Notes: a model not told the origin generated them from the sequence alone. Positions 2,950-60,219 are shown, counted from the stretch's first letter. The stretch: DNA of 64,000 nt from Patescibacteria group bacterium (GCA_035510735.1 DATKGN010000006.1:1429-65428); one strand, 5' to 3'. Program-made: numbers and translations.

Positions 2950-2950
2950 T

Positions 2951-34062: not shown

Positions 34063-34090
34063 TGTCATCCCCGACCTCGATCGGGGATCC
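34063..34090. repeat. short member of the TGTCAT-hairpin repeat family (TGTCAT + CCCCGA/TCGGGG stem), 8 nt upstream of the rplS ATG
   Basis: tgtcatccccgacctcgatcggggatcc. Confidence 0.5.
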
Positions 34091-34183
34091 TTCTTTCTAT
34101 AAATAGATTCCCACCGGAGTTTATCACGCACCTGATGCGGGGCGGAATGACACAAAATGTATTATACAATAAGTGACTTGAAG

Positions 34184-35827
34184 CTACAAGGCTAGGATGT
34201 ATTGGAGGAAAATCGGGTGGGGGTCAAGAGGTCTTGACCGGTATTCCGGGTGATATTGCGTTCCGATGAAGAACGGGTGAGTCGTTTTAGGCAATTCTAC
34301 AATCTCAACAAGATTTTCAACGACGGAGCGGCCCGCTAATATCATTCCGCCTTTTTCAAAATCTGTCGCATATTTGTCGTTAAATTCATACCGATGCCGA
34401 TGGCGTTCCCAAACAGTCCGTTTAACACTGTCGTCATATGCCTTATATTTCGTATAACTCCGATCGGCAATCGTGCCCTCTTTTACCTGGCATTCCCAAC
34501 GTCCTAGCCGCATCGTACCTCCATATGCACGACGCTTCAATATCTCCTCCTGACCATGAATCATATGGATAACCGGATGGGGAGTATTGCTATCACACTC
34601 AAGGGTATTGGCCTTCTCGTATCCCAGGACGTTTCGTGCATACTCAACGACAGCCAGCTGCATGCCATAACAAAGCCCCAAATACGGAATTTTATTGACC
34701 CGGGCAAAGTGAACCGCTTTAATTTTGCCTTCAACACCGCGCGGCCCCCAGCCAATAGGGACGATAATCCCATCCGCGTCTTTGAGCTCATCGTGATCGC
34801 CCTTCTCCAGCCGTTCGGCCTGAATCCATCGGACATCAACGTCAATGCCCTCCGCCCAGCTCGCATGATCAATCGCATCCATAAGTGCTGCGTAACTATC
34901 CCGCAGCTGATACTCACCGGTAGCAAAATATTTGCCGACAATCGCAACCGTTTTTTTCTTTGACTTTTTAGCAATGACTTTCTCAATCATGGTGTTCCAC
35001 TTACTGATATCAAGCTTTCGTAGCGGTAACCCTAGCATATCCAATATCATTTCATCCATTTTCTGTTTCGCGAGATGTGGCGCTGTTGAATAGGGTGTTT
35101 TCATATCCACACTGTCAATGACGTGGTCGCCGTCCACACCACAAAAGAGTGCGAACCGTTCGCGGCGGCGTTCATCCATGGGTTTTTCAGCGCGAGCCAC
35201 GATGAAATCTGGTTGTATACCCATGCCATTGAGCATCTTCACAGATAACTGCGTTGGCTTCGTCTTGGGTTCGCCCAAGTGGCTGGGAGTAGGAAGGTAG
35301 CTTACATGGACGTGAACAACGGAATTTTTCCGGTTACGCGTGAGAATCCGCGATGCTTCATAGTAAAGGACATTCTGATATTCCCCTGTCGTACCTCCGA
35401 GTTCAACGATAATGATATCCGATTGTTCTTTTTCTCCGGCTTCTCGAATCCGGGTCAATATTTCATCAGTGACGTGGGGGATTGCCTCGACATCTTCGCC
35501 GTTGTATCCGAAATTCCGCTCACGATGGATAACAGCCTGATAGACCTGACCCATCGTAATAAAATTATGGCGGTACATGTTTTTACTCAAAAACTTCTCA
35601 TAGGTGCCCATATCCATATCTGCTTCTGTCCCGTCATCCATGAGGAACGGGTCACCGTGTTCGATCGGATTGATAAGACCTGCGTCAATATTGAGATAAT
35701 TTTCACATTTTACGGGGGTGACTGAGTATCCTCGACTTTGAAGAAGAAGGGCGATTGATGCTGTTGTGACGCCTTTTCCTAAACCGGAAATCACGCCACC
35801 AGAAACGAAAATATATTTGGTGGGCAT
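34184..35827 (-). CDS. pyrG: CTP synthase
   Basis: MPTKYIFVSGGVISGLGKG N-terminus, glutamine amidotransferase C-domain (GLCYGMQ). Confidence 0.9.
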   Translation of the reverse strand: MPTKYIFVSGGVISGLGKGVTTASIALLLQSRGYSVTPVKCENYLNIDAGLINPIEHGDPFLMDDGTEADMDMGTYEKFLSKNMYRHNFITMGQVYQAVIHRERNFGYNGEDVEAIPHVTDEILTRIREAGEKEQSDIIIVELGGTTGEYQNVLYYEASRILTRNRKNSVVHVHVSYLPTPSHLGEPKTKPTQLSVKMLNGMGIQPDFIVARAEKPMDERRRERFALFCGVDGDHVIDSVDMKTPYSTAPHLAKQKMDEMILDMLGLPLRKLDISKWNTMIEKVIAKKSKKKTVAIVGKYFATGEYQLRDSYAALMDAIDHASWAEGIDVDVRWIQAERLEKGDHDELKDADGIIVPIGWGPRGVEGKIKAVHFARVNKIPYLGLCYGMQLAVVEYARNVLGYEKANTLECDSNTPHPVIHMIHGQEEILKRRAYGGTMRLGRWECQVKEGTIADRSYTKYKAYDDSVKRTVWERHRHRYEFNDKYATDFEKGGMILAGRSVVENLVEIVELPKTTHPFFIGTQYHPEYRSRPLDPHPIFLQYILAL

Positions 35828-35832
35828 AGTCT

Positions 35833-35862
35833 AAGATACCAAAAGTGAGGCTACCGTGTCAA
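35833..35862 (-). promoter_or_regulatory. candidate sigma70-like promoter for pyrG (TTGACA-N18-TATCTT), -10 ending 5 nt before the ATG (leaderless-type)
   Basis: Hexamers read on the minus strand; spacing only. Confidence 0.3.
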
Positions 35863-35884
35863 AGGGTAAAAGTCAATAGGCTTT

Positions 35885-36038
35885 TGTCATTCCCGCTCGT
35901 ATTCTTTGTCATTCTCGTGCCCGCCCGCCGGCGAGGCAGGAAAGCGAGGATCGGTATTCTCGTTAAGGCCTTCAACATTGGATCCCCGATCCCAACTGCG
36001 CCAAGGCTACGCCGGGCGAGGCAGGTCGGGGATGACAT
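35885..36038. repeat. GC-rich palindromic intergenic element, TGTCAT...ATGACA termini (family copy, ~154 nt) between upp stop and pyrG
   Basis: tgtcattcccgc...tgtcattctcgtgcccgcccgccggcgaggcagg ... gccgggcgaggcaggtcggggatgacat; arms are reverse complements. Confidence 0.6.
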
Positions 36039-36670
36039 TATAATTGTTCAGTTCCGAAGTACCGATCCCCGAAATCCCCAAGCCCCGGCACGATATACGC
36101 CAAGTCATTGAGTTTCTCATCGATAGCTGCAGTAATAACCGGTACATCCGGGTGGTGATCACAGAACCTCTTAATACCCTCCGGAGCAGATACAATAGAA
36201 ACGCTGATAATTCGCTTCGCTCCTTTTTGTTTCACCGCGGTCACGGTATCATCCATTGATCCGCCGGTTGCAAGCATCGGGTCAATGACAAAAACGATGT
36301 GCGTTGAAAAAATCTTCGGAATTTTTTTGTAATATTCACGGGCAATTGCCGTTTTTTCATCCCGCTCCAGACCGATAAATCCGACGGACATGGAGGGTAA
36401 AAGTTCGCGCATAGCAGTGAGCATCGCAAGCCCCGCCCGGAGAACCGGCACAACGACTACTTCGTCACTCAATTTTTTCCCGATAAACGGTGAAAGCGGT
36501 GTCTCGATCTGTTTATCCGTCGTCTTTACGTTTTTCAGCGCTTCAACGAGAAGCACTTTGGAAACAACGTCAGCGTGACGCCGAAACTCTTCCGTCCGCG
36601 TTGTTTTGTCACGTAGAATCGTAAGGGAATGATCTATGAGCGGGTGAGACACGACGGTTACGTTTTTCAT
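36038..36670 (-). CDS. upp: uracil phosphoribosyltransferase
   Basis: Full-length similarity to Upp incl. VIDPMLATGGS and C-terminal YIVPGLGDFGDRYFGT. Confidence 0.85.
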   Translation of the reverse strand: MKNVTVVSHPLIDHSLTILRDKTTRTEEFRRHADVVSKVLLVEALKNVKTTDKQIETPLSPFIGKKLSDEVVVVPVLRAGLAMLTAMRELLPSMSVGFIGLERDEKTAIAREYYKKIPKIFSTHIVFVIDPMLATGGSMDDTVTAVKQKGAKRIISVSIVSAPEGIKRFCDHHPDVPVITAAIDEKLNDLAYIVPGLGDFGDRYFGTEQL

Positions 36671-36673
36671 ACG

Positions 36674-37339
36674 TTACTCAAACCCCATCTCATGACCCCA
36701 TGTTTTGGGGTTTGAGAGGAAGCTATAAACGCTTTTACTTTGTTCCACTGTAATATAATTCTCGGCAGCAGCAGTTTCAATAACGGTTTGAATATTGGTG
36801 AGTGTTAAGAGTTCGATATTTAAATTTGTCACGGTTTCAACAAAACCCGCAATTGTCGACGTCGTTATCGCGAGACACTGGGATACCTTACCGCCTGCCT
36901 CCCGTATTGCATTAACATTAAGCGCAATACTTTTCCCTGTAGAAACAAGATCTTCAATAACGAGCACATTACTCCCTGATGCAAACTCGCCTTCAATCAA
37001 ATTTTCTTTCCCATGCTCTTTTTTGGAAGATCGCACATACACCATCGGTAATTTAAGTTCATACGCTAACACTGACGCATGTGGAATTGCCGCCGTTGCC
37101 GTACCTGAAAGCACATCGGGTTGTTGCTTTACATATTGTTTAATCACCTTGACATAGTTATTAATAACAACGTTCCACTCCGGATAATGGGAAATAAGCA
37201 ATCGATTATCTGTATATATAGGAGCAAGTAAGCCGCTAACATACCGGAAGGGTTTTTGGGTATTAATGGTTACCGCTTTTATCTCAAGTAGGCCTTTGGC
37301 AACTTCCTGCGCTATCTTTTTGTCAACAATTGTATCCAT
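36674..37339 (-). CDS. pyrE: orotate phosphoribosyltransferase
   Basis: PRPP motif NVLVIEDLVSTGKS; pyr operon context. Confidence 0.75.
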   Translation of the reverse strand: MDTIVDKKIAQEVAKGLLEIKAVTINTQKPFRYVSGLLAPIYTDNRLLISHYPEWNVVINNYVKVIKQYVKQQPDVLSGTATAAIPHASVLAYELKLPMVYVRSSKKEHGKENLIEGEFASGSNVLVIEDLVSTGKSIALNVNAIREAGGKVSQCLAITTSTIAGFVETVTNLNIELLTLTNIQTVIETAAAENYITVEQSKSVYSFLSNPKTWGHEMGFE

Positions 37340-37354
37340 ACGTAAAAGTATATA

Positions 37355-38173
37355 TTATCTGTACTGATTTATCTGATCACGTAGTTTTAGAGCCTCTTCG
37401 CGGGCTTTTTGTGCAAAATCCGCACCCGTTGAGGCGAAAAGGATTCCTCGCGATGAATTGATAATAGCGTTTCGTCCATGTCTGTCAACACCGGCCTTCA
37501 CTGTTTTCTTCGCGTCTCCGCCTTGAGTGCCAACACCAGGGATAAGGATCGGCATGTCGCCGGCTATACGTCGCACAATACTAAGTTCGGTAGGGTAGGT
37601 GGCCCCCACCACCAAACCGCAGTTCCCATTAGCATTCCAGTTCTTAGAAAAATTTTCGGCGACAATCTGATAAAGTGGTTTTCCTTTAACCATCAGGTCT
37701 TGAAATTCCCCGGCGCCGGGGTTTGACGTTCTGCATAGTATCAAAATCCCCTTTTCTTTTTGATCGAGAAAGGGTTTGAGCGCTTCGCCCCCCAGGTACG
37801 GCTGAAGCGTAACTGCATCACCTCCGAGATAATCAAACACAAACTTCGCATATCCGACATTTGTATTACCGATGTCAGCGCGTTTGGCATCAATAATGAT
37901 AACGACGTCGGGATAATGGGCCTTGAGATAATCACACGTCATCTTCATCGCTTCAACGCCGGCTACCCCCCGCGCTTCATAAAATGCCGTATTGAGCTTA
38001 TAGGCGCAAACCAAATCCTGTGTGGCATAAATAATTGCTTTATTAAATGTCGTTTGCGGGTGCGGCCCGTTTCTGATACGCTCGGGAATTTTATCGATAT
38101 CGCTATCCAACCCGATACACAGAAGCGAATTATTTTTTGCAACGATCGCATCTAATTTTTGTCGAAATGTCAT
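37355..38173 (-). CDS. pyrF: orotidine-5'-phosphate decarboxylase (type 2)
   Basis: LCIGLDSD...IIIDAKRADIGNT motifs. Confidence 0.8.
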   Translation of the reverse strand: MTFRQKLDAIVAKNNSLLCIGLDSDIDKIPERIRNGPHPQTTFNKAIIYATQDLVCAYKLNTAFYEARGVAGVEAMKMTCDYLKAHYPDVVIIIDAKRADIGNTNVGYAKFVFDYLGGDAVTLQPYLGGEALKPFLDQKEKGILILCRTSNPGAGEFQDLMVKGKPLYQIVAENFSKNWNANGNCGLVVGATYPTELSIVRRIAGDMPILIPGVGTQGGDAKKTVKAGVDRHGRNAIINSSRGILFASTGADFAQKAREEALKLRDQINQYR

Positions 38174-38751
38174 GGTTTCCTCCCTTTTACTTCAGTCAAC
38201 ATACGCTCAACGAGTACTCCCGGAGAATTTTCAAAAAACACCACTGCCTTATTTGGTTTTTGAATCTTAGTGTGAAGTTCGCGCAGTCCGTCAGCGACTC
38301 CGCCGGTTCCGGTTAAAACACCTATTACTTTCTCCATATCATAGAGGTTGGTAAACTCATTCATGGTCCCCCACCTACCTGATACGATTATACCGCCATC
38401 ACAATGTGCCGTTGACATGATGTTACGGTATTTTTTCCTCGCCATTTCGTCACGTGCGAGTTCAAAACTTTCCGGCATGTAAATAAGTTTGGCATACATC
38501 GATACATCAATATTTGGATAGACTTTCTGATGGTCTTCTTTGGATAGCTCAGGAGAAAACCCCCATATTTCAATTGGACTGACCGAACGGGCCGTATTTG
38601 CAACCTCGTATGGGACTCCGGCGCAGGCCCCGTTGATTAAGATGATTGAATCCCCTATTTTTCCAAGTTCCATCCCCAGGCTCTTTGCGATCTGTGTCGC
38701 CCTAGGAGATTCATTAACCGCGGAACCGAAAATACCGATTTTGATTTTCAT
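38170..38751 (-). CDS. LOG-family / TIGR00725-type Rossmann protein (nucleotide phosphoribohydrolase-like)
   Basis: IGIFGSA...PYEVANTA...GGIIVSGRWGTMNEF resembles LOG/YvdD family; ATGA overlap with pyrF. Confidence 0.5.
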   Translation of the reverse strand: MKIKIGIFGSAVNESPRATQIAKSLGMELGKIGDSIILINGACAGVPYEVANTARSVSPIEIWGFSPELSKEDHQKVYPNIDVSMYAKLIYMPESFELARDEMARKKYRNIMSTAHCDGGIIVSGRWGTMNEFTNLYDMEKVIGVLTGTGGVADGLRELHTKIQKPNKAVVFFENSPGVLVERMLTEVKGRKP

Positions 38752-38756
38752 ATCTG

Positions 38757-39176
38757 TTACTTGGCGGAAAACAATAAAATGATTCCAAAACTGGATAGTA
38801 ATAGGCCTAAGATTGCCTGTAACGATAGTTTTTCCCGAAGCAACAAGACCCCTAATATTGCTACAAGTGCGACACCACCTACTCGTAATATGGGCATCAC
38901 CGTAGATACCCCGGGGCCGATTTCCAGGGTTTTAAATGAAAAAAGCGTAAACAGTGACACGAACACGCCACCGAGTAACGCGAACATCAAACCCTGTTGA
39001 TTTGTTTCGACCTTGCGGCTGAACAAAAGATAAACAACGACCGTGGTTACAAACGACCCGATTTGAAATATAAGATTGGTAAAATACGGATCCTTGAGCT
39101 GCGATCCGAGTTTACGTAAGATATCGGATATCCCGATAAAACCTACCGCCACAAGTGCGTTTGCAATCCAGTTCAT
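38757..39176 (-). CDS. small EamA-like (4-TM) membrane protein
   Basis: 139 aa, four hydrophobic helices. Confidence 0.45.
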   Translation of the reverse strand: MNWIANALVAVGFIGISDILRKLGSQLKDPYFTNLIFQIGSFVTTVVVYLLFSRKVETNQQGLMFALLGGVFVSLFTLFSFKTLEIGPGVSTVMPILRVGGVALVAILGVLLLREKLSLQAILGLLLSSFGIILLFSAK

Positions 39177-39179
39177 AAA

Positions 39180-40106
39180 TTATGTATGGGCTGCGCCAAC
39201 TATCCCTTTGAGACTTTTAAGCCCTTCTTTCTCCATATACTGCCGGAGGCCTGATTTAATCTCTTCAAAAACGCCGACCCCTTTAAAGTATGTTGCGGTT
39301 CCCACACCCACAAGTGTGGCTCCTGCCATGATGGCTTCAAGAGCATCCTGCGTTGTTGTGATTCCGCCCATACCGATTATCGGAATCTTCACCGCCTCAT
39401 AGATATCATAGATGCATCTAATTGTCATCGTTTTAATACCCGGTCCCGACACTCCGCCTCGTTTGGCACCTAAGACCGGCTTCTTCCTGACAATATCGAT
39501 AACCATCCCGGGCCCGAATGTGTTCACGGCAACAATGCCGTCAGCGCCCGCGGCCTCGCATGCTTTGGCAACCTCGGCGATACTTGGTACATTTGGCGTT
39601 AATTTTGCTAAGACCGGCACCTTGCCCATTATTTTTTTCACTGCGCGGACAGCAGCTGCTGATGAATCAGCTCCGATCCCCAGAGGCTTACCCATATCAT
39701 CTTCGACATTCGGACAGCTTAGGTTAAGTTCAAAAAGAGCGTTTCCGATAACCGGCAAAAAACCTTCGGCAAACCGTTCAAAATCGCGGACGGTTGTTGC
39801 AAATACGCTTACGATAACCGGAACAGGTGAAGTTTTTATAAATTCGGCAACGAGTGGTATGCCTTTTTCAAGCCCCGGCCCCCTCAAACCCACTGAGTTA
39901 AGAAATGCATTTTCAGTTTTGAGAACCCGTGGGAGCGGATTGCCTTCTCTCGGCTCCGGAGTCAGTGATTTCGTCGTCACCGCGCCCACACCGGACTTTG
40001 CAAACCGGTCATGATCGCGCGGAATTTCCTGCGCGATACCGGAGGGCAATACCAACGGGTTTGGAAATATGACGCCGCAATAATCTATCGATAAAATATC
40101 ACCCAT
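39180..40106 (-). CDS. pyrD: dihydroorotate dehydrogenase catalytic subunit (class 1)
   Basis: GVIFPNPLVLPSG...NSVGLRGPGL, FMN-binding TIM barrel pattern. Confidence 0.8.
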   Translation of the reverse strand: MGDILSIDYCGVIFPNPLVLPSGIAQEIPRDHDRFAKSGVGAVTTKSLTPEPREGNPLPRVLKTENAFLNSVGLRGPGLEKGIPLVAEFIKTSPVPVIVSVFATTVRDFERFAEGFLPVIGNALFELNLSCPNVEDDMGKPLGIGADSSAAAVRAVKKIMGKVPVLAKLTPNVPSIAEVAKACEAAGADGIVAVNTFGPGMVIDIVRKKPVLGAKRGGVSGPGIKTMTIRCIYDIYEAVKIPIIGMGGITTTQDALEAIMAGATLVGVGTATYFKGVGVFEEIKSGLRQYMEKEGLKSLKGIVGAAHT

Positions 40107-40121
40107 ATATATACCAACATC

Positions 40122-41162
40122 CTATACTATCTTTCCGCCATCAACAAGTAGCTTCCCGCGTAAAACGACCCGTTCAATACAGCCACTCAACTCCCACCCG
40201 TCAAACGGAGACCATCCGCATTTCGTTTCATAGCCTGTACTTCCAACTACATAGGGTTTTACGGGATCAAGCTCAATAAATGTGTTAGGTTGGTCAGGTA
40301 TCGTAAATATTTTCTTGGGTTTCGTGTATAAAAGGTCAATCATTTTGTCCGTTGTCAGTTTTTTTTCGACAATTGCATGCACAAGTAATGGAATTGTCGT
40401 TTCTAAACCTGGCACTCCAAAGCAAGGAGTGCTATGCACCTTCTCTTCTTTCGTATGTGGAGCGTGATCACTCTCTATAATGTCGATGATTCCCGTTTGT
40501 ATTGACTCCCACAACATCTCCTGGTCCTGTTTGCTTCCGATTGGCGGTTTAAAGAGAGCGAATGCGCCGAGTTTCGCAACATCGCCCTCTGTTAAAAACA
40601 AATGATGGGGCGTGACACCGCAGGTGATAATAAGATTATGTTCTTTCGCCGTTTTGACCCGACCAACGTCATCCTGCGTTACGACATGACATATGTGGAT
40701 GCGACGATGGTAATGAGCAGCTAAATCGACACACTCACCTAATATATCGCCCTGTGCATGGACAAGTATTGGCTTATCCGACTCCCACGCCGCGAAAATT
40801 GCATCAAGGGCAACTGGATCGGTGATCATAAGATCACCCGTCGTCTTCCCGCAGTATACCTTGAGACCAAATACATGTGGATCGCGTATTACCGCCCCAA
40901 ATGAAGCGAGATTGTGTCCGTCCGTCCCGAAGTGGAAACCGGTATCACACAGCGCTTTTGAATCCGCAAGGGAAACTTTTTCATTGAGGCGTTCGGAGCT
41001 TATTGTGGGGCAGCCCGGATTATTGGGCATATCACAAACAAATGTGAATCCGCCCTTAATTGCCGCCCTACTGCCGCTGGCAAAGTCTTCTTTATTCGTC
41101 GCGCCGGGCTCACGGAGGTGCACATGCATATCGATAAATCCCGGAAACCGTTGGAGTGCCAT
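40122..41162 (-). CDS. pyrC: dihydroorotase
   Basis: FIDMHVHLREPG metal-binding motif; pyr context. Confidence 0.8.
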   Translation of the reverse strand: MALQRFPGFIDMHVHLREPGATNKEDFASGSRAAIKGGFTFVCDMPNNPGCPTISSERLNEKVSLADSKALCDTGFHFGTDGHNLASFGAVIRDPHVFGLKVYCGKTTGDLMITDPVALDAIFAAWESDKPILVHAQGDILGECVDLAAHYHRRIHICHVVTQDDVGRVKTAKEHNLIITCGVTPHHLFLTEGDVAKLGAFALFKPPIGSKQDQEMLWESIQTGIIDIIESDHAPHTKEEKVHSTPCFGVPGLETTIPLLVHAIVEKKLTTDKMIDLLYTKPKKIFTIPDQPNTFIELDPVKPYVVGSTGYETKCGWSPFDGWELSGCIERVVLRGKLLVDGGKIV

Positions 41163-41173
41163 AGTTTATTTTT

Positions 41174-41259
41174 TGTCATTGCGAGTCGAGTCATCGAGAC
41201 GTGGCAATCTCTTTATATTTTAGAGATTGCTTCGCCGTCTGAACGGACTCCCAATGACA
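41174..41259. repeat. palindromic intergenic element TGTCATTGCGAG...CAATGACA (family copy) between pyrB stop and pyrC start
   Basis: tgtcattgcgagtcgagtcatcgagacgtggcaatctct ttatatttt agagattgcttcgccgtctgaacggactcccaatgaca; nested palindrome gcaatctct/agagattgc. Confidence 0.65.
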
Positions 41260-41266
41260 GACCATG

Positions 41267-42205
41267 CTATTTCTTCAACACTAAGGAAAGTAACGCCATC
41301 CGCACGTACATACCGTTTTGCATTTGTTCCCGTAAGTACAGCGCCCGCGGATCAGTGTCCACATCGGGAGCAATCTCGCCGACTCGGGGGAGCGGGTGCA
41401 TGAGTATTGCCGACTTTTTTAATTTCCCCATAATCCCGCGGTTTATGATGAACCGGTGCTTCAGGCGTTCATATGTTTTCAAATCGGTAAACCGCTCTTT
41501 TTGTACACGGGTGACATACAAGACATCCGTATCAGATAGCACATCATTAAGCACCGCTGTCTCTTGTGTAACGATTCCTTGATCGTTCAGGACAGTCACG
41601 AATTCTTTCGGTATCATAAGTTCTGGAGGGGAAACAAAATTAATCTTTTTGGGGCGATACAACCGGAGTAATGTCGAAAGTGAATGGATAGTCCGACCAT
41701 TCAGCATGTCTCCGACAAATGTAATCGTGAGACCGCTTAGAGAACCGAAATGATTATGTATAGTATAAAAATCAAGGAGCGCCTGAGTCGGATGCTCGCC
41801 CGTTCCATCGCCCGCGTTAATGACCGGTTTCTCAGTTGCCGCTGCAGCGATATCGGCCGCACCAACTTCAGGGTGTCTCACAACAATGACATCTGAATAA
41901 CTTGCAAATGTCCGGACGGTATCTTCGAGCGTTTCTCCTTTTGCAACCGACGAGTAGACAACGCCCTGGAGCGGTATAAATCCACCGCCAAGGCGCTGCA
42001 TCGACGCTATGAATGATCCGAATGTCCGGCTGCTTGGCTCATAAAACAACGCGGTCATGAGTTTTCCATGTAAAAGATCTGAGGCTCCCTTCGTTTGTAC
42101 TAATTCCTGCATCTGCCGAGTTCTTTCAATAATCACTTCTATATCCTCTTTCGTAAATTGTGATGTGCTTAAGATGTCCGACTGATAGAGGGTTTGGTGT
42201 TTCAT
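41267..42205 (-). CDS. pyrB: aspartate carbamoyltransferase catalytic subunit
   Basis: STRT motif (YEPSSRTFGSF), HPLP region. Start set to ATG at 42205, 1 nt after the carB stop; track start 42220 would overlap carB. Confidence 0.85.
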   Translation of the reverse strand: MKHQTLYQSDILSTSQFTKEDIEVIIERTRQMQELVQTKGASDLLHGKLMTALFYEPSSRTFGSFIASMQRLGGGFIPLQGVVYSSVAKGETLEDTVRTFASYSDVIVVRHPEVGAADIAAAATEKPVINAGDGTGEHPTQALLDFYTIHNHFGSLSGLTITFVGDMLNGRTIHSLSTLLRLYRPKKINFVSPPELMIPKEFVTVLNDQGIVTQETAVLNDVLSDTDVLYVTRVQKERFTDLKTYERLKHRFIINRGIMGKLKKSAILMHPLPRVGEIAPDVDTDPRALYLREQMQNGMYVRMALLSLVLKK

Positions 42206-42206
42206 A

Positions 42207-45200
42207 TTATATGTACTCATTCCATGCTAATACTTTTAGATCACTTAGGGTATACCTGTGCATGGATTCAATGAATAACCGTGCGGACTCTGCGTTGGTA
42301 AATATCGGAATCGCAAGATCAATCGACATCCGCCGCATAAGATATCCGTCGGTAAACCCGCGGGTGACGCGGCTCCGGCTCGCGTCCGTAAATCGTTCAG
42401 GCAAAACGACGGAAAAACCAATTTTTCGTGCTTTCAATAAATCAGCATAATGCGGGTGAAGTCCTTCATGAAGCTTATGGACTTTTACTGAACTGACCCC
42501 CTCCCCCCGTAAAAAATCGTTCGTTCCTGCCGTCGCATATAATGTGTAGCCCATCGAGCGAAGGAGCTTTGCAGCGGCGAGAAAATTTTGTTTTTGTGCC
42601 GACCCGCCTAAGCTTAAAAATACTGCTTTATGCTCCGGATACCTGGTTCCTGTGGCAAGGAGCGCCTTGAGATACGCCTCATGGATATCTGCCCCGAACG
42701 CTGCGACTTCTCCGGTTGAACTCATTTCAACGCGGAGTACCGGATCGGCGCCTCGTAGACGCTTGAATGAAAACTGCGGAACTTTAACCGTAACATGATG
42801 CATCCTCTTCATAATAATTGGTTTAACTTTTTTTCCAAGTGCAACCCTGGTCGCGAGTGTTATGAAGTTAACACCTGTGGCTTTACTGACAAATGGAATA
42901 CTCCTTGAAGCACGGAGGTTGCACTCAATAACGAAGGGGCGCGATTTATGAACCAAAAACTGGATATTGAACGGGCCGCTCACCTTAAGCTCTTTGACAA
43001 TCGCTTCTGCATCTTTCTTAATAACCGCCTGCATATCTTCAGACAGCGTCATTGGTGGCAAAACAAGCGTGGCGTCTCCAGAGTGAACACCCCCGTTTTC
43101 AACGTGTTCCGATAGTGCGTAAACGATGAGCCTTCCGTGATCCGCAACTCCATCGAAATCGCATTCTGTTGCTCCTTCTATAAATTTTGTCATAACAAGG
43201 GAACTATTCCTTGTATCAGCGTCAACGCCCGCCAGATATTCTTCTAATTGCTTTTCAGCTTCAATAACAAGCATGGCTTTCCCGGATAATACGAATGAAG
43301 GGCGAATGAGAACCGGAAAACCGATTTTCTTTGCCATTTTGAGCGACTGATCAAATGATTTGGCCTCACTCCATTCGGGTTGTGCGATACCGAGATGGTC
43401 AAGGAGTTTACTGAAGACTTGGCGATCCTCAGCTTTCATAATCGTTTTGGCGTCGGATCCGAGGAGTGGAATTTTGTGTTCAGCAAGCTTCAATGCGAGA
43501 TTATTCGGGATCTGTCCGCCGACCGCGACGATAAACGGAGACCTCTCTTTATCATATATGTCCATGACCCTCTCAAGCGTCAGTTCTTCGAAATAGAGAT
43601 AATCCGTATTATCATAATCAGTTGATACGGTTTCAGGATTGCAGTTGATCATGACCGTTTTTTTACCAAATTTCTTAAGCGTCATAACGGTGTTGACTGC
43701 ACACCAATCAAATTCAACCGACGTACCTATGGAGTACGGGCCGCCTCCCAACACAATGACTTTATCCTCGGGCGCCGGCTCATAATCTGAGGACCGGGCG
43801 GCATACGTCATGTACAGATAATTTGTTTTCGCTGGGAATTCACCGGCCATCGTATCGATATGTTTAATGAAGGGTACGATGCCCATCATTACCCTTACGG
43901 ACCGGACGTCATCTTCTGTCGATTTCCGAAATAGTGCTATCTGTTTATCAGAAAACCCCTGGCGTTTTGCATCGGCGAGCAAATCGGAAGATAACTCTTT
44001 TTCACTGACTAACCGTACGTACGTATCAACAACTCTCCGCAGGGAATACAAAAACCATGGATCAATTCCGGTTAATGCATAAATTTCCTCGACCGAGATA
44101 CCTCGTGCGAGCGCGGCAGAGACAATAAATAGTCTCTTGGCGTCAGGTTTTTTCAACCGCTTTTTAATCGTACTTTTATCAAGACCCATAAGGCTCGGAT
44201 CGATGACTCCTTCATAACCTTGATTGATCATCCGGACGGCTTTTTGTATGGCTTCCTTAAATGTCCGCGCAATACTCATCACTTCTCCGACGCTTTTCAT
44301 CTCACTTCCGATATGCAGATCGACATTTGTATATTTCTCAAGATCCCAACGGGGAATTTTGACGACGACGTAATCAAGAGCGGGCTCAAAAAAAGCGGAA
44401 GTCTTCTTTGTCACAGAGTTCTCGAGCTCGGGGAGTTTCCTCCCAAGAGCCAGTTTTGCAGCGATATACGCGAGAGGGTATCCCGTGGCTTTGGAAGCAA
44501 GAGCGCTTGAGCGGGAAAGTCGTGCATTCACTTCGATGATGCGATAGTCCCCGTTTTTCGGGTTAAGTGCATATTGGATATTACACTCGCCCACGATTTT
44601 AAACTCACGGATTGTGTCAATCGCAATTTGGCGAAGGTTGTAATATTCATCATTGGTGAGCGTCTGCGAGGGCGCGATAACAATTGATTCACCGGTATGG
44701 ATGCCGACCGGATCAAAATTCTCCATATTGCAGACTGTTATGCAGTTATCATCCTGATCCCGTACGACTTCATATTCCACTTCCTTCCACCCGTAGAGAC
44801 ACTCTTCAAGAATCACCTGGGAATTCGTCGCGAATGCGTTGGTTAATAATTCGGAAAGTATCTGTTTATTTTCAGCAACCCCGCTGCCTGTGCCCCCGAG
44901 CGCGTATCCCGTACGAAGCATGATCGGGTACCCGAAGCTTCCCGCAATCGCCAATCCTTCCTCTACACTTTTGGCAATTTTTCCTTTGGCTGTTTTAAGA
45001 CCGATACGCTCAAGGCGTTTCGCAAATAATTCTCTGTCCTCCGTATCAATTACTGCTTCTATAGGAGTGCCCAAAATATCTACATGGTATTTTGTAAGTA
45101 CTCCGCTGTTATGAAGTTCTATACCGCAATTGAGGGCAGTCTGTCCTCCGAATGAGAGAAGAATACCATCAGGCTTTTCTTTTGCGATGACACGTTCGAC

Positions 45201-46474: not shown

Positions 46475-46523
46475 TATCGATAAAAAAATCCCGCTTTCGC
46501 GGGGTTACTATGAGTGAAAATTA

Positions 46524-49155: not shown

Positions 49156-49177
49156 AAAAAAAGAGCCGTTAGGCTCT
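49156..49177 (-). terminator. intrinsic terminator-like hairpin (AGAGCC-TAAC-GGCTCT + T6/7) ending at the argG ATG
   Basis: Perfect 6-bp stem and U-tract read on the minus strand; stop codon of the upstream small ORF lies in the loop. Confidence 0.5.
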
Positions 49178-50518: not shown

Positions 50519-50519
50519 T

Positions 50520-52812
<2,293 letters not shown>

Positions 52813-52816
52813 GTTA

Positions 52817-54328: not shown

Positions 54329-54335
54329 ATGTTTT

Positions 54336-54692
54336 TTATTGATTTAACAGAAGGGCCAGCTGTTCAAGTTGACCTCTCATTGTCGTATCCACGATCCAGT
54401 CCCCCACCTGAATCCGCAGACCTGCAATGATGAGAGGGTTAACGGTACTTTCCAACTGTACTTCGTGTCCCAGTAATTTGACAAGAGCCTTCACGAGCCG
54501 CGCTTTTTCCTCTTCAGTAAGAGCGACGCTCGTTTCCACTTTGGCAATTTTTTCCTTCTTGGCGGTCGCCGTCACTTTCCCCAAAAACGCCTGCACCTTC
54601 GGTAACACTGCTTTTGATCGGTCTTCATGACGGAGATAATTGACAACCCCGTCAACGAGTCCGCGTGCATCTTTGGTTAAAGGTGTATCCAT
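54336..54692 (-). CDS. atpH: F0F1 ATP synthase subunit delta (short form, 118 aa)
   Basis: Position between atpF and atpA; helical OSCP-like C-terminal part only. Confidence 0.6.
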
Positions 54693-54694
54693 AG

Positions 54695-55195
54695 TTAAAC
54701 CGATTTCATCGACTCCAGCTCACTCACGTGTTTGGCTATCATCGCGTGTTTTTCTTCGTTGGACAAAACTCCCGTCAACAGCCGTTTAGCCATCGCGATA
54801 GCAAGCTCGACTGCGCTGGCCTGAACCTGCTTTTGCATCGCAAGCCGCTCATGATCGATATCCGCCCGGGCTTTGAGAAGGATCACTTCCGCTTCCTTAT
54901 GCGCTTCGGCAATAATTTCCTTTTCCTCTTCTTTGGCCTGTTTCCGAGCTTCCTCAATAATGTCCTGACCCTCTTTTCGGACCGTGACGAGCATTTTCTG
55001 CTTTTTCTCTTCAAATTTTTCTTCCTCTTCGCGCATCTTCGCTGTCAGATTGAGGCCTTCAGCGATCTCTTTCTTCCGTTTTTCAAGCATACCGAGAATC
55101 GGTTTATATAAAAGCTTTGACAGCACAAACACTATAATCGCAAAGTTGACGATTTGTGCGATCAGTAATTTTGGTTCAATTCCTAATTTATCCAT
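54695..55195 (-). CDS. atpF: F0F1 ATP synthase subunit b
   Basis: N-terminal TM helix then long charged coiled coil. Confidence 0.8.
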   Translation of the reverse strand: MDKLGIEPKLLIAQIVNFAIIVFVLSKLLYKPILGMLEKRKKEIAEGLNLTAKMREEEEKFEEKKQKMLVTVRKEGQDIIEEARKQAKEEEKEIIAEAHKEAEVILLKARADIDHERLAMQKQVQASAVELAIAMAKRLLTGVLSNEEKHAMIAKHVSELESMKSV

Positions 55196-55288
55196 AAATG
55201 TTCCTTTCTATAACATCTGGCACATCAATGCCATTTTACCATCCCGCTTAGGGCGGGATGAGAAAACATCATTGTTTCCACTCACTCT

Positions 55289-55522
<234 letters not shown>

Positions 55523-55540
55523 TCACCTCCGATCAAAATT

Positions 55541-56272
55541 TTATGCGTGCTCCTCTCCGTGTGATACGGCGACATTGAGAAATACTGCGGTCAGCATTGA
55601 GAAAACAAGCGCCTGGATGAACCCGACGAATAATTCCAGGGTTAAGAAAGGGAGCGGCACGAGGAACGGCATGAGGAATGCCATAACTGCAAGGAGGACT
55701 TCGCCTGCAAAAATATTGCCGAATAACCGGAACGCAAACGAAATGACTTTCGACAGTTCAGACACAAGCTCAAGAATACCCAGGAGAAACATAATAGGGT
55801 TTGAAAAATTGATAAAGCGCGAACTGTAATGAAATCCGACTACCTTAAACCCGAAGTACTGAATTGCGATAACCGCAACGAGCGCGAGTCCGATCGTCAT
55901 ATTAAGATCAGCGGTTGCAGCCCTTAGGAGCGGTACAAATTCTTCACCATGGAAAAATCCAATGGTTCCGAAACCGGGCAAAAGCCCCAACCAGTTTGCT
56001 GTAATGATAAAAAGGAAAAAGCTTGCAACCAACGGGAAAAACTTATTGATATGCTTCTCTCCCGTAACGGACTTAAAAAAGTCATAGAGGCCTCCGATCA
56101 ACACTTCCGCAATTACCTGTATTCCCGATGGGATCATTTGAAGATTTCGTGTCGCAGCCCAGGAAAAAATAATGAGAACCGCCATGGTCACCCATGTTGC
56201 AAGAAGCGAATTGGTGATCGGCATTCCGAGAATGCTTCCGATTCTTTCCGCTGCAAGCGATATGTGTAGCAT
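55541..56272 (-). CDS. atpB: F0F1 ATP synthase subunit a
   Basis: 243 aa, 5-6 TM, conserved Arg region (FRLFGNIFAGE). Confidence 0.85.
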   Translation of the reverse strand: MLHISLAAERIGSILGMPITNSLLATWVTMAVLIIFSWAATRNLQMIPSGIQVIAEVLIGGLYDFFKSVTGEKHINKFFPLVASFFLFIITANWLGLLPGFGTIGFFHGEEFVPLLRAATADLNMTIGLALVAVIAIQYFGFKVVGFHYSSRFINFSNPIMFLLGILELVSELSKVISFAFRLFGNIFAGEVLLAVMAFLMPFLVPLPFLTLELFVGFIQALVFSMLTAVFLNVAVSHGEEHA

Positions 56273-56333
56273 ATATTCCTTAATTTGTTTACGATTGTGT
56301 TAATACCCGAACAAATTTTATTTGAAGGGTATA

Positions 56334-56675
56334 TTATTTTTTTTGATTCAATAGTTCACGGATAGTCTGTATAAATCCGACAACTGAAATGACGATGCCG
56401 ACAAAAAGTAATAAGAGGGTTGCTTTTGGGTACGTTGATAGTCTTCTATCAATGTATGCCCCGAGTAACCCCCCACCGACAATCGGCAGCGCGATCGCAT
56501 ATCCGATTTGACCGACAAACCCGAGATAGAACCATGCACCAGTATCTTCTTTCCTCTTCTTTTTAGGTGAATTCCCGCTTACTTCAACAATCCCGTTAAT
56601 ATCCTTTATGTGAAGCCGATATGATTCTTTCTTCGGTCCTTTTTGTTCTCCAAACTTTTCTATTTTCGTATTCAT
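56334..56675 (-). CDS. atpZ: AtpZ/AtpI-family protein (ATP synthase operon gene 1)
   Basis: Small 2-TM protein at the head of the atp operon (FYLGFVGQIGYAIALPIVGGGLLGAYID). Confidence 0.6.
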   Translation of the reverse strand: MNTKIEKFGEQKGPKKESYRLHIKDINGIVEVSGNSPKKKRKEDTGAWFYLGFVGQIGYAIALPIVGGGLLGAYIDRRLSTYPKATLLLLFVGIVISVVGFIQTIRELLNQKK

Positions 56676-56899
56676 TGTAGTAAATGAAAGCCTACTCCGT
56701 CAATGCGTAACCGTGATGCATGTGTGTAAGGTAGGTTACATTTAGGCACGGGCATATTGAAGCCTTGAGCACCTTCAGCCCTAGGATTCTTTTATTGTAT
56801 ATCAATCTTCTTCATTATCACAAAGCTGAAATTCCACGAAGCGGCATTAACAACGCTCCCATCCGGGGTTGGTGACTCCCGGGATACCGCGTAGTGGGA

Positions 56900-59800
56900 T
56901 TATTCTGTTGAATAGGTTTGAGCTGAGAGTAAATTCGCATCATCAATGAGGATGGTGAGCCGGTCGTCTTTCTCGTCGATTTTACCGCCCACCGTCACGA
57001 TCTGGTCCATCTGCCAATAATCCATCGTCCGCGCATACACCTTAGGGAATACGACTATTTCAATTATTCCGGTCAGATCCTCGAGCTTCACGAAGGCCAT
57101 CTCATGGTTGCCGGCTTTTGTCGTAATCCGCTTCACATTGACGACAATTCCGCCGACTGATACCCGTTCACCGACCCTATTAACGTTGATATCGGCAATT
57201 GAGGTTAAGGAAAGCGTGCTTAGCTGCTTCCGGTACGGTTCCAAAGGATGCATCGTGAGGTAAAATCCCAATAATTCCTTTTCGTACGCCAGAAGCTCAG
57301 ACTGGGCGATCTCCGGCACTTGAGGGAGAATGTCAGAGAGAATCTGTTTTGCATCATCTTCGGCAAACAACCCGACCTGACCTGATGCGACCTGTTTTTT
57401 TTGCTTATGAACCTGGTCAAGAACCGCCGGAAGGAACGCAAGGAGTGCCGCGCGTTTCCCGAATGCATCCATGGCGCCGGCTTTGATGAGACTCTCAAGC
57501 ACTTTCTTATTGACCTTGCCGGTTTCCACACGGCCCAAGAAATCCCCGATTCCCACGAATTTACCGGCAGCGCGGGCGGCAAGGATGACTTCGATTGCCG
57601 CTTCACCCACATTCTTGACCGCAGACAGTCCGAAACGGATCTTTTCATTCTCTATCGTAAACTCCACGTCCGATGAATTCACGTCTGGAGGGAGGAGCGC
57701 GATTCCGGTCCTCCGGCACTCGGCAACGATACTTGAGATCTTATCGTCGCGTGCCGGCCCCGTATTTGCCCGGGACTCAGCAGCCAATACCGCAGTCATG
57801 TATTCAACTGGATAATTGGCTTTGAGGTACGCTGTCTGATAGGCAATCATGGCGTAACATGCCGCATGCGCTTTGTTAAATCCGTAGCCGGCGAAGGGCT
57901 CAATGAGATTGAAAATCTCCTCAGCGCCCTGCCTGGCCATCCCGTTTTTGATACATCCTTCGACAAATTTCTCCTTCTGTTTCTTCATTTCCGAAGGAAT
58001 CTTTTTGCCTACTGCCTTCCGAAGCTTATCGGCGTCCCCCCACGAGTAACCGGCCAGGGTGATGGCGGTCAAAAGCACGTCGTCCTGGTAGGCGATAATC
58101 CCGTAGGATTGTTTCAAAACATCCTTAAGCCGGGGGTCCGGGTACATAATCTGTGTGGGATCGTGTTTCCGCCGTATAAATTCGGGGATGACCTGCATGG
58201 GTCCGGGCCGGAAAAGGGCGACCATCGCCATGACATCGAAGATGTTGGTGGGCCGTAATTCCTTGATGTAGCGCCGCATGCCCGCCGACTCAAGCTGGAA
58301 TACGCCTGTTGTCTCGCCGCTTGAAAGCATTTTGTAGGTCTTCGCGTCGTTAAGCGGGATTGAGGATAAGTTAATCGTCTCCCCGCGCACTTGTTTAATA
58401 AATTTGAGGGCCTGTGTCATGATCGTCAGGTTCCGTAAGCCCAAAAAGTCCATCTTGAGAAGCCCCACGCCGTCTTCGCCTACGGTATACATATCGTATT
58501 GGGTCACAATCCGCTCGCCCTTACTCTCACGCTGGAGCGGTGTATACTCGACGATCGCCTTGTCGGCGATGACAACGCCTGCTGCATGAACCGACGCATG
58601 GCGTGCAACGCCTTCGAGCTTCCGCGCGACATCAAGAAGCCGCTTGGTCTCCGGTTCACTTTGGTACGCCAGAGCGAGCTCTGGCGCCTGCTGGATAGCT
58701 TTATCGATTGTCATCGCACTTCCCTGAAATCCCATGGGAATCATCTTTGAAATCCTATCCGGCTGTGCATAGGGCATCCCGAGCGCCCGGCCGGCATCAC
58801 GGACGGCACCGCGCGCCTCCATCGTGCCGAAGGTGATAATCTGGGCGACCTTGTCCGAACCATACCGCTGTGTGACGTATTTGATGACTTCATCACGCCT
58901 ATCATCAGCAAAATCAAGGTCGATATCGGGGGGGCTAGGGCGGAATGGATTTAAAAACCGCTCAAACGGGAGGTTAAAGAATAAGGGATCAATGCCGGTG
59001 ATGTTGAGGATAAACGAAATAACTGACCCCGCAGCCGATCCGCGTCCGGGTCCGACCCCGATCCCGTTATTCTTAGCCCAGTTGACGAAATCCTGGACGA
59101 TAAGGAAATACGTCGAATAGCCCTTGGTATTGATAATGTCGAGCTCGTAATTGATCCGTTCCCGTACCGCTTCCGTCATCTTTGGATATTTCGTAGGCGC
59201 CCGGTCCCAAACCATTTTACGTAGGTACGAAGCCGGCGTCTCTCCCGCTTCAAGCGGATACTGCGGCAAAATCCATTTTCCGACAGATAAGGTGATGTCG
59301 CACATGGATGCGATCTTGACGGTATTTTCAATCGCCTCAGGATATTGGATGAAAAGTCCGCGCATCTCTTCGGGCGAACGCATATAAAAATCAGGCGACT
59401 CAAGCATCGAGAGCGGCCGGTCCTTCTCTATCATCGTGTGCTGGGTCTGGACGCAAAGGAGAATTTCCTGCGCCTCCGCATCTTCGGGGTCTACATAATG
59501 AATGTCGTTGGTCGCGACCAAGGGAAGGCCAAGCTTGCGCGACAGCGCAACGAGCTTCTCATTGATTTCGTCCTGGAGGGGAATATGGGGGTGTTTCTGA
59601 AGCTCTATATAATAATGATCGCTGCCGAAAAGCTCGCTATACTTCCTCGCCGTATCCTCTGCCTCTTTGTCTTTCCCCTCACGCAGGAGTACGGATATCT
59701 GCCCCTGAAGACACGCGCTGGTGCAGATGATCCCTTCGTGATATTTGGTCAGAAGTTCGAAGTCGATGCGCGGTTTGTAGTAGTAGCCTTCAAGGTGCGC

Positions 59801-60124
59801 GATCGTGACGAGCTTCATGAGGTTCTTGTATCCTTCCTCGTTTTTGGCAAGGAGAATGAGATGGTATGGGTCGGTATCAATCTTTCCCTCTTTATCGAGG
59901 TGGCTCCGGCGGGCAATATACGTCTCCACTCCTAAAATCGGTTTAATGCCCGCGGCTTTGGCTTTAAGGTAAAACTTGAAGGAGCCGTACATGGCGCCGT
60001 GATCGGTGAGGGCCAAGGCATCCATCCCGAACGATTTGGCGCGCTCAATAAGGTGGTCCAATTTCCCCAGTCCATCAAGGAGTGAAAATTCGCTGTGCGT
60101 GTGCAAGTGTACAAAATCTCCCAT
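56900..60124 (-). CDS. dnaE: DNA polymerase III alpha subunit
   Basis: PHP N-terminus FVHLHTHSEFSLLDG, polymerase core, OB-fold tail. Start placed at MGDFVHLH (60124); alternative upstream ATG at 60142 (MTTALIMGDF) lies inside the hairpin repeat. Confidence 0.85.
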   Translation of the reverse strand: MGDFVHLHTHSEFSLLDGLGKLDHLIERAKSFGMDALALTDHGAMYGSFKFYLKAKAAGIKPILGVETYIARRSHLDKEGKIDTDPYHLILLAKNEEGYKNLMKLVTIAHLEGYYYKPRIDFELLTKYHEGIICTSACLQGQISVLLREGKDKEAEDTARKYSELFGSDHYYIELQKHPHIPLQDEINEKLVALSRKLGLPLVATNDIHYVDPEDAEAQEILLCVQTQHTMIEKDRPLSMLESPDFYMRSPEEMRGLFIQYPEAIENTVKIASMCDITLSVGKWILPQYPLEAGETPASYLRKMVWDRAPTKYPKMTEAVRERINYELDIINTKGYSTYFLIVQDFVNWAKNNGIGVGPGRGSAAGSVISFILNITGIDPLFFNLPFERFLNPFRPSPPDIDLDFADDRRDEVIKYVTQRYGSDKVAQIITFGTMEARGAVRDAGRALGMPYAQPDRISKMIPMGFQGSAMTIDKAIQQAPELALAYQSEPETKRLLDVARKLEGVARHASVHAAGVVIADKAIVEYTPLQRESKGERIVTQYDMYTVGEDGVGLLKMDFLGLRNLTIMTQALKFIKQVRGETINLSSIPLNDAKTYKMLSSGETTGVFQLESAGMRRYIKELRPTNIFDVMAMVALFRPGPMQVIPEFIRRKHDPTQIMYPDPRLKDVLKQSYGIIAYQDDVLLTAITLAGYSWGDADKLRKAVGKKIPSEMKKQKEKFVEGCIKNGMARQGAEEIFNLIEPFAGYGFNKAHAACYAMIAYQTAYLKANYPVEYMTAVLAAESRANTGPARDDKISSIVAECRRTGIALLPPDVNSSDVEFTIENEKIRFGLSAVKNVGEAAIEVILAARAAGKFVGIGDFLGRVETGKVNKKVLESLIKAGAMDAFGKRAALLAFLPAVLDQVHKQKKQVASGQVGLFAEDDAKQILSDILPQVPEIAQSELLAYEKELLGFYLTMHPLEPYRKQLSTLSLTSIADINVNRVGERVSVGGIVVNVKRITTKAGNHEMAFVKLEDLTGIIEIVVFPKVYARTMDYWQMDQIVTVGGKIDEKDDRLTILIDDANLLSAQTYSTE

Positions 60125-60136
60125 AATTAGTGCGGT

Positions 60137-60219
60137 TGTCATTGCGAGCCCGTTCTTACGGCGAAGCAATCCCTCCCTGCGCAGGCAGGTCAAATACAAA
60201 AATCTTCGCTCGCAACGAC
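60137..60219. repeat. palindromic element TGTCATTGCGAGC...GCTCGCAACGAC (family copy) covering the dnaE 5' end
   Basis: gtcattgcgagcccgttcttacggcgaagcaatccctcc...cttcgctcgcaacgac; left arm nearly identical to the right arm of the 41174..41259 copy. Confidence 0.6.

Follow-up and report, generated by a model that had tools for sequence, protein, structure and literature searches.

The window examined here, a 64,000-nt stretch of DNA from Patescibacteria group bacterium (GCA_035510735.1 DATKGN010000006.1:1429-65428), contains four GC-rich palindromic elements located upstream of rplS, pyrG, pyrC and dnaE. These palindromes are, with high probability, gene-less hairpin repeats of the NTS/SRM family that inserted into short gaps, their closeness to start codons being a by-product rather than a regulatory design. 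The family itself is already known and was published in 2025; what is new here is a member in an uncultured lineage, together with a GCGAG subtype and a doublet form that fall outside the published pattern. A preliminary description of the window had recognized a GC-rich palindromic family at four loci and read it either as a miniature inverted-repeat transposable element (MITE) that targets 5' untranslated regions (5'-UTRs) or as a shared regulatory or structural RNA. The family is real, and the MITE-like reading holds in substance: the copies are gene-less inverted doublets with the ends and orientation of nuclease cassettes, and they are absent from the orthologous gaps of relatives. Neither 5'-UTR targeting nor a shared RNA function agrees with the positional, strand and biochemical evidence described below.

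Anatomy of the repeat units

The four elements occupy gaps between co-directional genes (34055-34183, 35828-36037, 41163-41266 and 60125-60309), and every unit in the window is intergenic. The repeated entity is a directional unit of 25-50 nt with the layout 5'-Y-GTC-[AT...stem...loop...stem...AT]-C-Y-3'; each locus consists of two or three such units, and the unit 5' ends point outward at all four loci. Intact units carry TGTC directly before the AT-opening palindrome, and U1, U2 and U4-U8 terminate in ...AT-C. Units of the GCGAG subtype follow the arrangement TGTC-ATTGC-GAG-[variable hairpin]-CG(AA/TG)-GCAAT-C. This anatomy was worked out independently of the published account of the Ssn system and agrees with it (PMC11893778).

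The rplS doublet (34063..34152, 90 nt) lies between the rplS -10 box and the ATG at 34054, ending 8 nt before the latter. It combines U2 (34063..34090, plus strand), which reads TGTCATCCCCGACCTCGATCGGGGATCC and forms an 8-bp stem (DNA fold -7.7 kcal/mol, z -1.9), with U1 (34105..34152, minus strand), TGTCATTCCGCC...GGTGGGAATCT, a decayed NTS-type unit with an enlarged loop and a weak DNA fold (z 0.15). The interval 34063..34090, previously given for this copy, therefore covers only half of the element. The pyrG composite (35885..36037) follows the upp stop codon without a gap, upstream of the pyrG promoter, and contains three units: U3 (35885..35899, plus), a truncated 5' half read directly as TGTCATTCCCGCTCG; U4 (35907..35953, plus), TGTCATTCTCG...CGAGGATCG, with a GC-rich upper hairpin (DNA fold -10.4 kcal/mol, z -1.7); and U5 (35980..36037, minus), TGTCATCCCCGA...TCGGGGATCC, with a long upper hairpin. 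The pyrC doublet (41174..41259, 86 nt) sits 7 nt from the pyrB stop and 11 nt from the pyrC ATG and forms one long hairpin (DNA z -6.7). Its GCGAG-subtype unit U6 (41174..41210, plus) reads TGTCATTGCGAG-[TCGAGTCATCGAGA]-CGTG-GCAATCT, and its partner U7 (41222..41259, minus) reads TGTCATTGGGAG-[TCCGTTCAGACGG]-CGAA-GCAATCTCT with one mismatch in the lower stem. The dnaE doublet (60137..60220, 84 nt; DNA z -3.65), located 12 nt upstream of the ATG at 60124, pairs an intact left unit, U8 (60137..60172, plus), TGTCATTGCGAG-[CCCGTTCTTACGG]-CGAA-GCAATCC, with the decayed 5' half U9 (60196..60220, minus), GGTCGTTGCGAGCGAAG....

As DNA, single units give marginal folds, and the pyrC and dnaE doublets form long hairpins. 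The resemblance noted earlier between the left arm of the dnaE copy and the right arm of the pyrC copy is confirmed, U8 and U7 differing at 5 of 37 positions. A comparison of G·T with A·C mismatches, meant to show which strand folds, had too few mismatches to work with.

The termini proposed for the family are shared in part. The 12-mer TGTCATTGCGAG opens the pyrC and dnaE copies, and the coding-strand ends of the elements read ATGACA; the other two copies open with TGTCATCCCCGA and TGTCATTCCCGC, and the four right termini (CTCCCAATGACA, CTCGCAACGACC, CGGGGATGACA and GGCGGAATGACA) are never exactly CTCGCAATGACA. The distances from ATGACA to the start codon had been measured correctly for rplS (8 nt, 34055-34062), pyrC (11 nt, 41163-41173) and dnaE (12 nt, 60125-60136), and that of pyrG is 57 nt; the bases preceding the ATGs are AGAAAACT, AAAAATAAACT and ACCGCACTAATT. 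Two open reading frames (ORFs), 35845..36111 and 41118..41582, do exist as described; they cross the repeats antisense to the real genes and are spurious.

Nuclease cassettes, family-wide variation and insertion polymorphism

In the published system, the NTS is defined as CGTCATTCCCGCGMAVGCGGGAATCYRG, accompanied by a variant and by a degenerate "Ssn-related motif" (SRM) (Chenal et al., Nat Commun 2025, PMC11893778). SsnA of Neisseria, a 94-aa GIY-YIG protein with catalytic residues Y6, Y17 and E64, binds the hairpin only as single-stranded DNA (ssDNA), cuts a few nucleotides upstream on one strand only, and is inactive on RNA and double-stranded DNA (PMC11893778). Mutagenesis established that cleavage depends on the three bases preceding the palindrome and binding on the C that follows it, with a replaceable loop, and ssn genes of this widespread family are typically bracketed by SRMs in an insertion sequence (IS)-like layout (PMC11893778).

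The window units resemble the NTS/SRM hairpins in being directional and extragenic, with GTC, preceded by a base other than G, just 5' of an AT-starting palindrome, with C and then a pyrimidine just 3' of it, and with a variable loop; in other genomes, the GCGAG subtype also brackets a nuclease gene of ~95 aa in inverted orientation. They differ in that most of them have a GCGAG lower stem, an internal loop GA/CGNN and an upper hairpin of up to ~30 nt, and in that the window copies are gene-less, partly decayed doublets with no ssn gene in the window. The host, too, is different: it belongs to an uncultured environmental lineage and not to Neisseria, Wolbachia or Sphingomonads. Canonical NTS is found in the same lineage: NTS cores (TGTCATTCCCGCG[AC]A[ACG]GCGGGAATCCAG), matching the consensus except for its first base, are present in the relatives L137, L187 and L193, and NTS cores also lie beside GCGAG units in phage contigs. 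In addition, the orthologue of the rplS doublet in the relative L125 contains a near-canonical NTS, TGTCATTCCCGCGTAGGCGGGAATCT, as the counterpart of U1.

In 10 of 10 cassettes examined, GCGAG units flank a single-domain GIY-YIG gene (PF01541, 96-98 aa), and the order in all ten is unit(+)-gene-unit(-). A first GIY-YIG regular expression missed these genes, which were revealed as ORFs with units on both sides. Three cassettes came from motif scans (L282, L240 and L311), two from a protein-based scan of phage contigs that yielded two loci only (L323 and L324), and five of five from look-ups that started from protein matches alone (P0019, P0027, P0067, P0098 and P0032); at the P0032 locus (L332), the contig edge falls partway into the downstream unit. 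The nuclease family comprises at least 8000 protein clusters (E <= 1e-10), and NCBIfam holds no model for the cassette nucleases. For comparison, a search for NTS-N310-340-NTS(inverted) recovered three canonical-NTS cassettes with proteins of 97-103 aa (L334, L335 and L338), and the proteins of the GCGAG cassettes share 43-51% identity with these NTS-bracketed proteins (E 1e-25 to 5e-32). The cassette proteins contain invariant Y7, Y18 and E66, the spacing of which equals that of SsnA Y6, Y17 and E64. The extension GCAATCTCT...AGAGATTGC of the nuclease cassettes is retained in the pyrC doublet. In L311 (2690-2860), a GCGAG-bracketed ssn-like gene is split by an unrelated palindromic insertion of ~165 nt.

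The subtype is broadly distributed. The pattern TGTCATTGCGAG-N8-30-GCAATC was scanned against two collections and returned at least 120 stretches from phage-like contigs and at least 120 from bacteria represented by one genome per species; identical units occur in hundreds of other contigs. Among the matches listed, the GCGAG subtype spans more than 15 bacterial phyla in addition to phage contigs, with Alpha-, Gamma- and Deltaproteobacteria, Campylobacterota, Chloroflexota, Planctomycetota, Nitrospirota, Patescibacteria, Bacillota, Cyanobacteria, Bacteroidota, Ignavibacteriota, Armatimonadota, Omnitrophota, Gemmatimonadota, Spirochaetota and Aminicenantes represented. The isolates among these listed matches include Mucilaginibacter, Chryseobacterium, Hymenobacter, Bradyrhizobium, Nostoc and Helicobacter rodentium. 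Units are found singly, in tandem arrays that repeat every ~40 nt, and in inverted doublets, the last predominantly in the '+-' orientation of the cassettes ('+-' versus '-+', 26 versus 2 in genomes and 12 versus 2 in phage contigs).

Across the family, the stems vary in a compensatory manner, so that structure is conserved and sequence is variable. Among 665 TGTCAT...ATC[CT] candidates, all three variable lower-stem pairs are complementary in 134, against 10.4 expected by chance and 21 in a slid control, and the six main pair sets are TCC/GGA, TGC/GCA, TCT/AGA, CCC/GGG, CCT/AGG and CGC/GCG. Of 236 distinct inner segments of GCGAG units, a region that the search leaves unconstrained, 105 contain a perfect stem of 3 bp or more closed by G...C, whereas shuffled sequences give 4 of 236; stem arms of 4 bp or more came in 58 different versions, with mostly GNA loops. 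Among 145 units picked without the pattern, T or C precedes GTC in 92%, and C or T follows the closing C in 92%.

Two further arrangements were observed in these contigs. Tandem arrays of 3-5 same-orientation units with a period of ~37-42 nt occur in L041 (2669-2856, 11850-11964 and 12666-12780) and L067 (8304-8491); they mix upper-stem variants and look superficially CRISPR-like, yet the gaps are only ~12 nt. In the phage-like contigs L015, L018, L041, L067, L076, L090 and L285, all units (5-17 per contig) lie on one strand, often one per gene boundary; whether they are sense or antisense to the genes differs between contigs, which suggests an effect of the DNA strand rather than of the transcript.

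Comparison with related genomes reveals that the window copies are insertions, since the orthologous gaps are empty in relatives. A metagenome scan with PyrG yielded 80 orthologous loci (64-100% identity) with conserved pyrG-rplS-yraN synteny; the window's own strain is L123 among them, and the same strain is present in SRR8676592, SRR8693976 and a JGI metagenome contig. The pyrG|rplS gap measures 10-38 nt in ~45 relatives, including the closest, L124 (84% PyrG identity), and in most relatives these short gaps place a TGnTAnAAT -10 box 9-12 nt before the rplS ATG. A doublet between this box and the ATG is found in the window, L123 and L125, and L193 has a single unit there. Similarly, the pyrB|pyrC gap is 18 nt in L125, and in the window the same 18 nt (7 + 11) is augmented by the 86-nt doublet. 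The upp|pyrG gaps of relatives measure 30-145 nt and lack the element. The gene-carrying form is polymorphic as well: a full cassette occupies gyrB|gyrA in L330 and L331, between the gyrB stop and the gyrA ribosome-binding site, and the same gap is 14 nt in L340 and L341 (91-92% identity).

Other insertions were noted at the same junctions. Unrelated AT-rich MITE-like palindromes occupy the rplS-upstream spot in L126 (after 5118), L184 (after 3545) and L182/L183 (after 11638/6917), and in L339 the gyrB|gyrA gap is occupied by a third hairpin family, CTCTCCC...GGGAGAG (2346-2491); hairpin elements from several families seem to accumulate at stop|start junctions. The close GyrB/ParE matches (P0121-P0240) are mostly fragments cut at contig ends, which may reflect assemblies breaking at the repeat-filled gyrB|gyrA junction.

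A mechanism can be proposed on this basis. An Ssn-type nuclease (~95-aa GIY-YIG) would bind the unit folded in ssDNA and cut a few nucleotides 5' of GTC, the mode of action of the characterised members, and the doublets are best read as gene-less, MITE- or REPIN-like derivatives of unit-ssn-unit cassettes. Such doublets would have entered very short intergenic spacers and would since have partly decayed. With recipient spacers of only ~18-40 nt, distances to start codons would necessarily be small, and in a lineage lacking Shine-Dalgarno sequences, with starts often right after the -10 box, the insertions that survive would leave a short A-rich stretch before the ATG. The proximity to ATGs is accordingly attributable to the ~18-40 nt length of the spacers, combined with the lack of Shine-Dalgarno sequences and with starts next to the -10 box, and the 8-12 nt left before the ATGs may simply represent what selection tolerates in such a lineage. 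An Ssn enzyme could act on the window copies, and Ssn or the cassette machinery could mobilise and spread the doublets.

Gene position and competing explanations

Positional statistics were compiled from genomes and phage contigs other than the window and rest on simple, rather crude ORF calls. Unit clusters are predominantly intergenic (129 versus 19 within ORF calls in genomes, and 162 versus 51 in phage contigs), and elements are present in co-directional, convergent and divergent gaps alike. In only 38-43% of 198 co-directional gaps is the distance from the element to the downstream start shorter than that to the upstream stop, and single units are sense or antisense to genes in nearly equal numbers (48:46 and 24:18). 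No positional bias relative to gene starts therefore emerges, and the lack of both a start bias and a transcribed-strand bias argues against 5'-UTR targeting as well as against an RNA element. The window itself conforms to this result, as the pyrG copy abuts the upp stop upstream of a promoter and the pyrC copy lies nearer to the pyrB stop than to the pyrC start.

The promoter context is informative at two of the loci. The pyrG promoter (35833..35862, minus strand; TTGACA-18-TGgTATCTT) lies outside the element and ends 5 nt before the ATG, and its form TTGAC-N17-18-TGgTATCTT is conserved in L125, L132, L137, L151, L170 and L177; this conserved promoter, located between element and ATG, explains the longer distance of the pyrG copy. 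The rplS -10 box (34161..34166, minus strand) is TATAAT preceded by TG, and the doublet begins 8 nt downstream of it. Sigma-70-type promoters ending 5-12 nt before the pyrG and rplS ATGs, with no Shine-Dalgarno sequence, are conserved across dozens of relatives (L124-L202), and both genes appear to be leaderless or nearly so. Transcription is expected to turn the rplS doublet into a leader and the pyrC doublet into a hairpin between cistrons. These two doublets may therefore have side effects on expression, and a secondary influence on the pyrBC, rplS or dnaE mRNAs may exist.

An alternative is that the palindromes are cis-acting RNA hairpins, in a 5'-UTR or between cistrons, that tune translation or stability of the rplS, pyrC and dnaE mRNAs and are kept near the starts for that purpose. 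Three of the four copies do end 8-12 nt before an ATG, the rplS doublet between -10 box and ATG would be part of the leader and is common to the window and L125, and the pyrC doublet folds as RNA with -40 kcal/mol. Against these points stand the near-equality of sense and antisense units and the absence of a start-side bias described above, the location of the pyrG copy upstream of its promoter, and the dissimilarity of the four copies in sequence and size. Most orthologous genes carry no such element, and no Rfam 15 model matches, whether the window is searched at the gathering threshold, 33900-41400 at E up to 5, or four unit-rich contigs at E up to 1. The enzyme known to partner this family, moreover, ignores RNA and binds ssDNA (PMC11893778). 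An RNA element, including the shared regulatory or structural RNA proposed earlier, is consequently judged improbable. Terminators or attenuators of the pyrimidine cluster, for instance of the PyrR type, are a still weaker candidate and very unlikely. Three copies do adjoin pyr genes (after upp, between pyrB and pyrC, and after pyrG), but the fourth precedes dnaE, and these units recur across many phyla in unrelated contexts. No Rfam PyrR element matches, and on this ground, together with those unrelated contexts, a pyrimidine attenuator was rejected; intrinsic termination was rejected because the hairpins are followed by no T-tract on the coding strand and the terminator scan calls canonical terminators at 46490-46503 and 49162-49177 and none at the elements.

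A relationship to REP/REPIN repeats spread by RAYT, a Y1 HUH transposase, or to IS200/IS605 ends would fit much of the architecture. As in the REP, BIME and REPIN-RAYT systems, the repeats are short (25-50 nt), imperfectly palindromic and extragenic, and their 5' flank is conserved; they occur in many copies per contig, tandem arrays included; the cognate gene is bracketed by the repeats; and action on an ssDNA hairpin is presumed. The inverted doublets, folding as long hairpins, likewise resemble a REPIN in being the apparent spreading unit. The conserved flank is nevertheless Y-GTC and not a GTAG-type tetranucleotide, the same unit sequence is shared across phyla whereas REPs are species-specific, and the gene bracketed in all ten cassettes encodes a GIY-YIG enzyme and not a Y1 transposase, for which the RAYT idea itself was rejected; this relationship has little probability. 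Chance likeness of a few short GC-rich palindromes would be consistent with the weak signal of relaxed searches in the window: the 12-mer with 2 mismatches allowed is not enriched (13 observed, 9.2 expected), and TGTCATT by itself is not enriched. A loose hairpin scan of the window was too noisy to add copies (23 matches in the control). The exact 12-mer, by contrast, occurs twice (41174 and 60137) against 0.01 expected from shuffles, with 0 of 100 shuffles reaching two, and ~2 Mb of fetched loci plus the window contain 412 units versus 29 in reversed-sequence controls. Taken with the lower-stem complementarity, the intergenic location of all true units and the recurrence of identical units in other contigs, these counts already refute chance, whose probability is negligible.

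Two other families of small repeats offer partial parallels. The Neisseria dRS3 element is a bare 20-bp palindrome that serves as a phage integration target. The dRS3 core ATTCCC-N8-GGGAAT is contained in the ATTCC-type units of L125, L137, L187 and L193, and a literature search on dRS3 was what led to PMC11893778; searches with the repeat sequence strings and with peptides of its mistranslation gave nothing useful. Composite intergenic arrays are a further likeness to dRS3/NIME. The window's ATTCC-type unit U1 is degenerate, however, and the GCGAG units lack the dRS3 core. MITEs such as the Neisseria Correia elements are small, non-coding palindromic intergenic insertions that can land in leaders or between cistrons, in which they resemble the window elements. 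A classical MITE would combine terminal inverted repeats with a target-site duplication and a parent IS that has the same ends; inverted ends and a gene-carrying parent cassette with the same ends are present here. In contrast to Correia-type MITEs, no target duplication was seen, the autonomous partner is not a DDE-transposase IS, and each end is a structured hairpin unit and not a plain terminal inverted repeat.

Several observations weigh against assigning the window copies to gene-less NTS/SRM-family repeats. The published SRM search pattern, HGTCWYN(0-2)YYVSBRHN(0-5)WNVSBRGN(0-2)RNCYNB, is based on 29 genomes and leaves room for no more than 5 free central bases (PMC11893778); it fits only one of the seven window units tested, U2 (34063-34092), and U1 and U4-U8 fail because of a longer interior or the GCGAG stem. 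Units U1, U3, U7 and U9 are decayed, and lone units fold weakly as DNA (z 0.15 to -1.9). A tblastn search found no Ssn-type GIY-YIG gene in the 64-kb window or in ~0.9 Mb of relatives' loci, and a sequence search of the PDB returned no SsnA structure, the solved structures nearest to the nuclease profile being distant UPF0213 proteins (E 8e-5). At the four window sites and at L330, neither a target-site duplication nor a precise excision footprint was seen, the empty sites being too diverged for base-precise mapping, and the inserted segment of L330 exceeds the TGTCAT...ATGACA core by 21 nt and 10 nt. To our knowledge, the mobility mechanism has so far been demonstrated by nobody.

The only GIY-YIG relative in the relatives' loci is a distant gene associated with tRNA-Lys. 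This ORF of ~80 aa (L141 12720-13098; L183 7827-8200, minus strand) matches a group I intron endonuclease weakly and starts right after a partial 5'-half copy of tRNA-Lys(UUU), with an intact tRNA-Lys following. It looks like a homing-type insertion in a tRNA gene, distinct from the Ssn cassettes.

Neighbouring features and implications

From ~30 kb to 62 kb, all genes of the window named by NCBIfam and Pfam lie on the minus strand. Those next to the elements are yraN (33295-33675), rplS (33635-34054), pyrG (34184-35827), upp (36038-36670, stop codon 36038-36040), pyrC (40122-41162), pyrB (41267-42220) and dnaE (56900-60124, with its true start ATG at 60124). The same run also includes pyrE, pyrF, pyrD and carB, and the pyrimidine cluster has the order carA-carB-pyrB-pyrC-pyrD..pyrF-pyrE-upp-pyrG. 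The dihydroorotase gene at 40122-41162 is short (346 aa) and aligns from approximately position 50 of full-length profiles with sub-cut-off scores; no N-terminal piece is present upstream, where the end of pyrB is only 104 nt away. A sub-threshold match to the 2dG-II purine riboswitch at 38874-38940 on the minus strand (27.4 bits against a gathering threshold of 60, E 0.003), inside an EamA-like ORF (38757-39176), is probably due to chance. At the other end of the window, a low-GC block on the plus strand (709-8637; 0.33-0.38 versus 0.44-0.50 elsewhere) codes for a type III restriction-modification pair (N6/N4 methylase and Res helicase) and a HerA-like (DUF87) ATPase, and is probably an acquired defence island.

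The window palindromes would accordingly be selfish or relic repeats and not regulators, and their start-codon pattern is not to be taken as biology. For annotation, the repeats matter in that they yield many false small proteins and break assemblies. The family was described in 2025 from few phyla; the GCGAG subtype, which the published pattern misses, extends it to more than 15 phyla among the matches listed and has its own branch of Ssn-like nucleases (at least 8000 clusters), gene-less doublets and insertion polymorphism. More tentatively, and with the balance somewhat against it, cassettes and gene-less doublets may together form a very widespread class of mobile elements that moves via ssDNA with only a ~97-aa GIY-YIG nuclease, by an undescribed mechanism of transposition or homing, with GCGAG as a major branch. 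The doublets in pyrB|pyrC and pyrG|rplS and the cassette in gyrB|gyrA are the first insertion polymorphisms of both forms, and phage genomes are colonised densely and strand-uniformly. With these materials, the question of how a tiny GIY-YIG ssDNA nuclease spreads its hairpins becomes directly testable.

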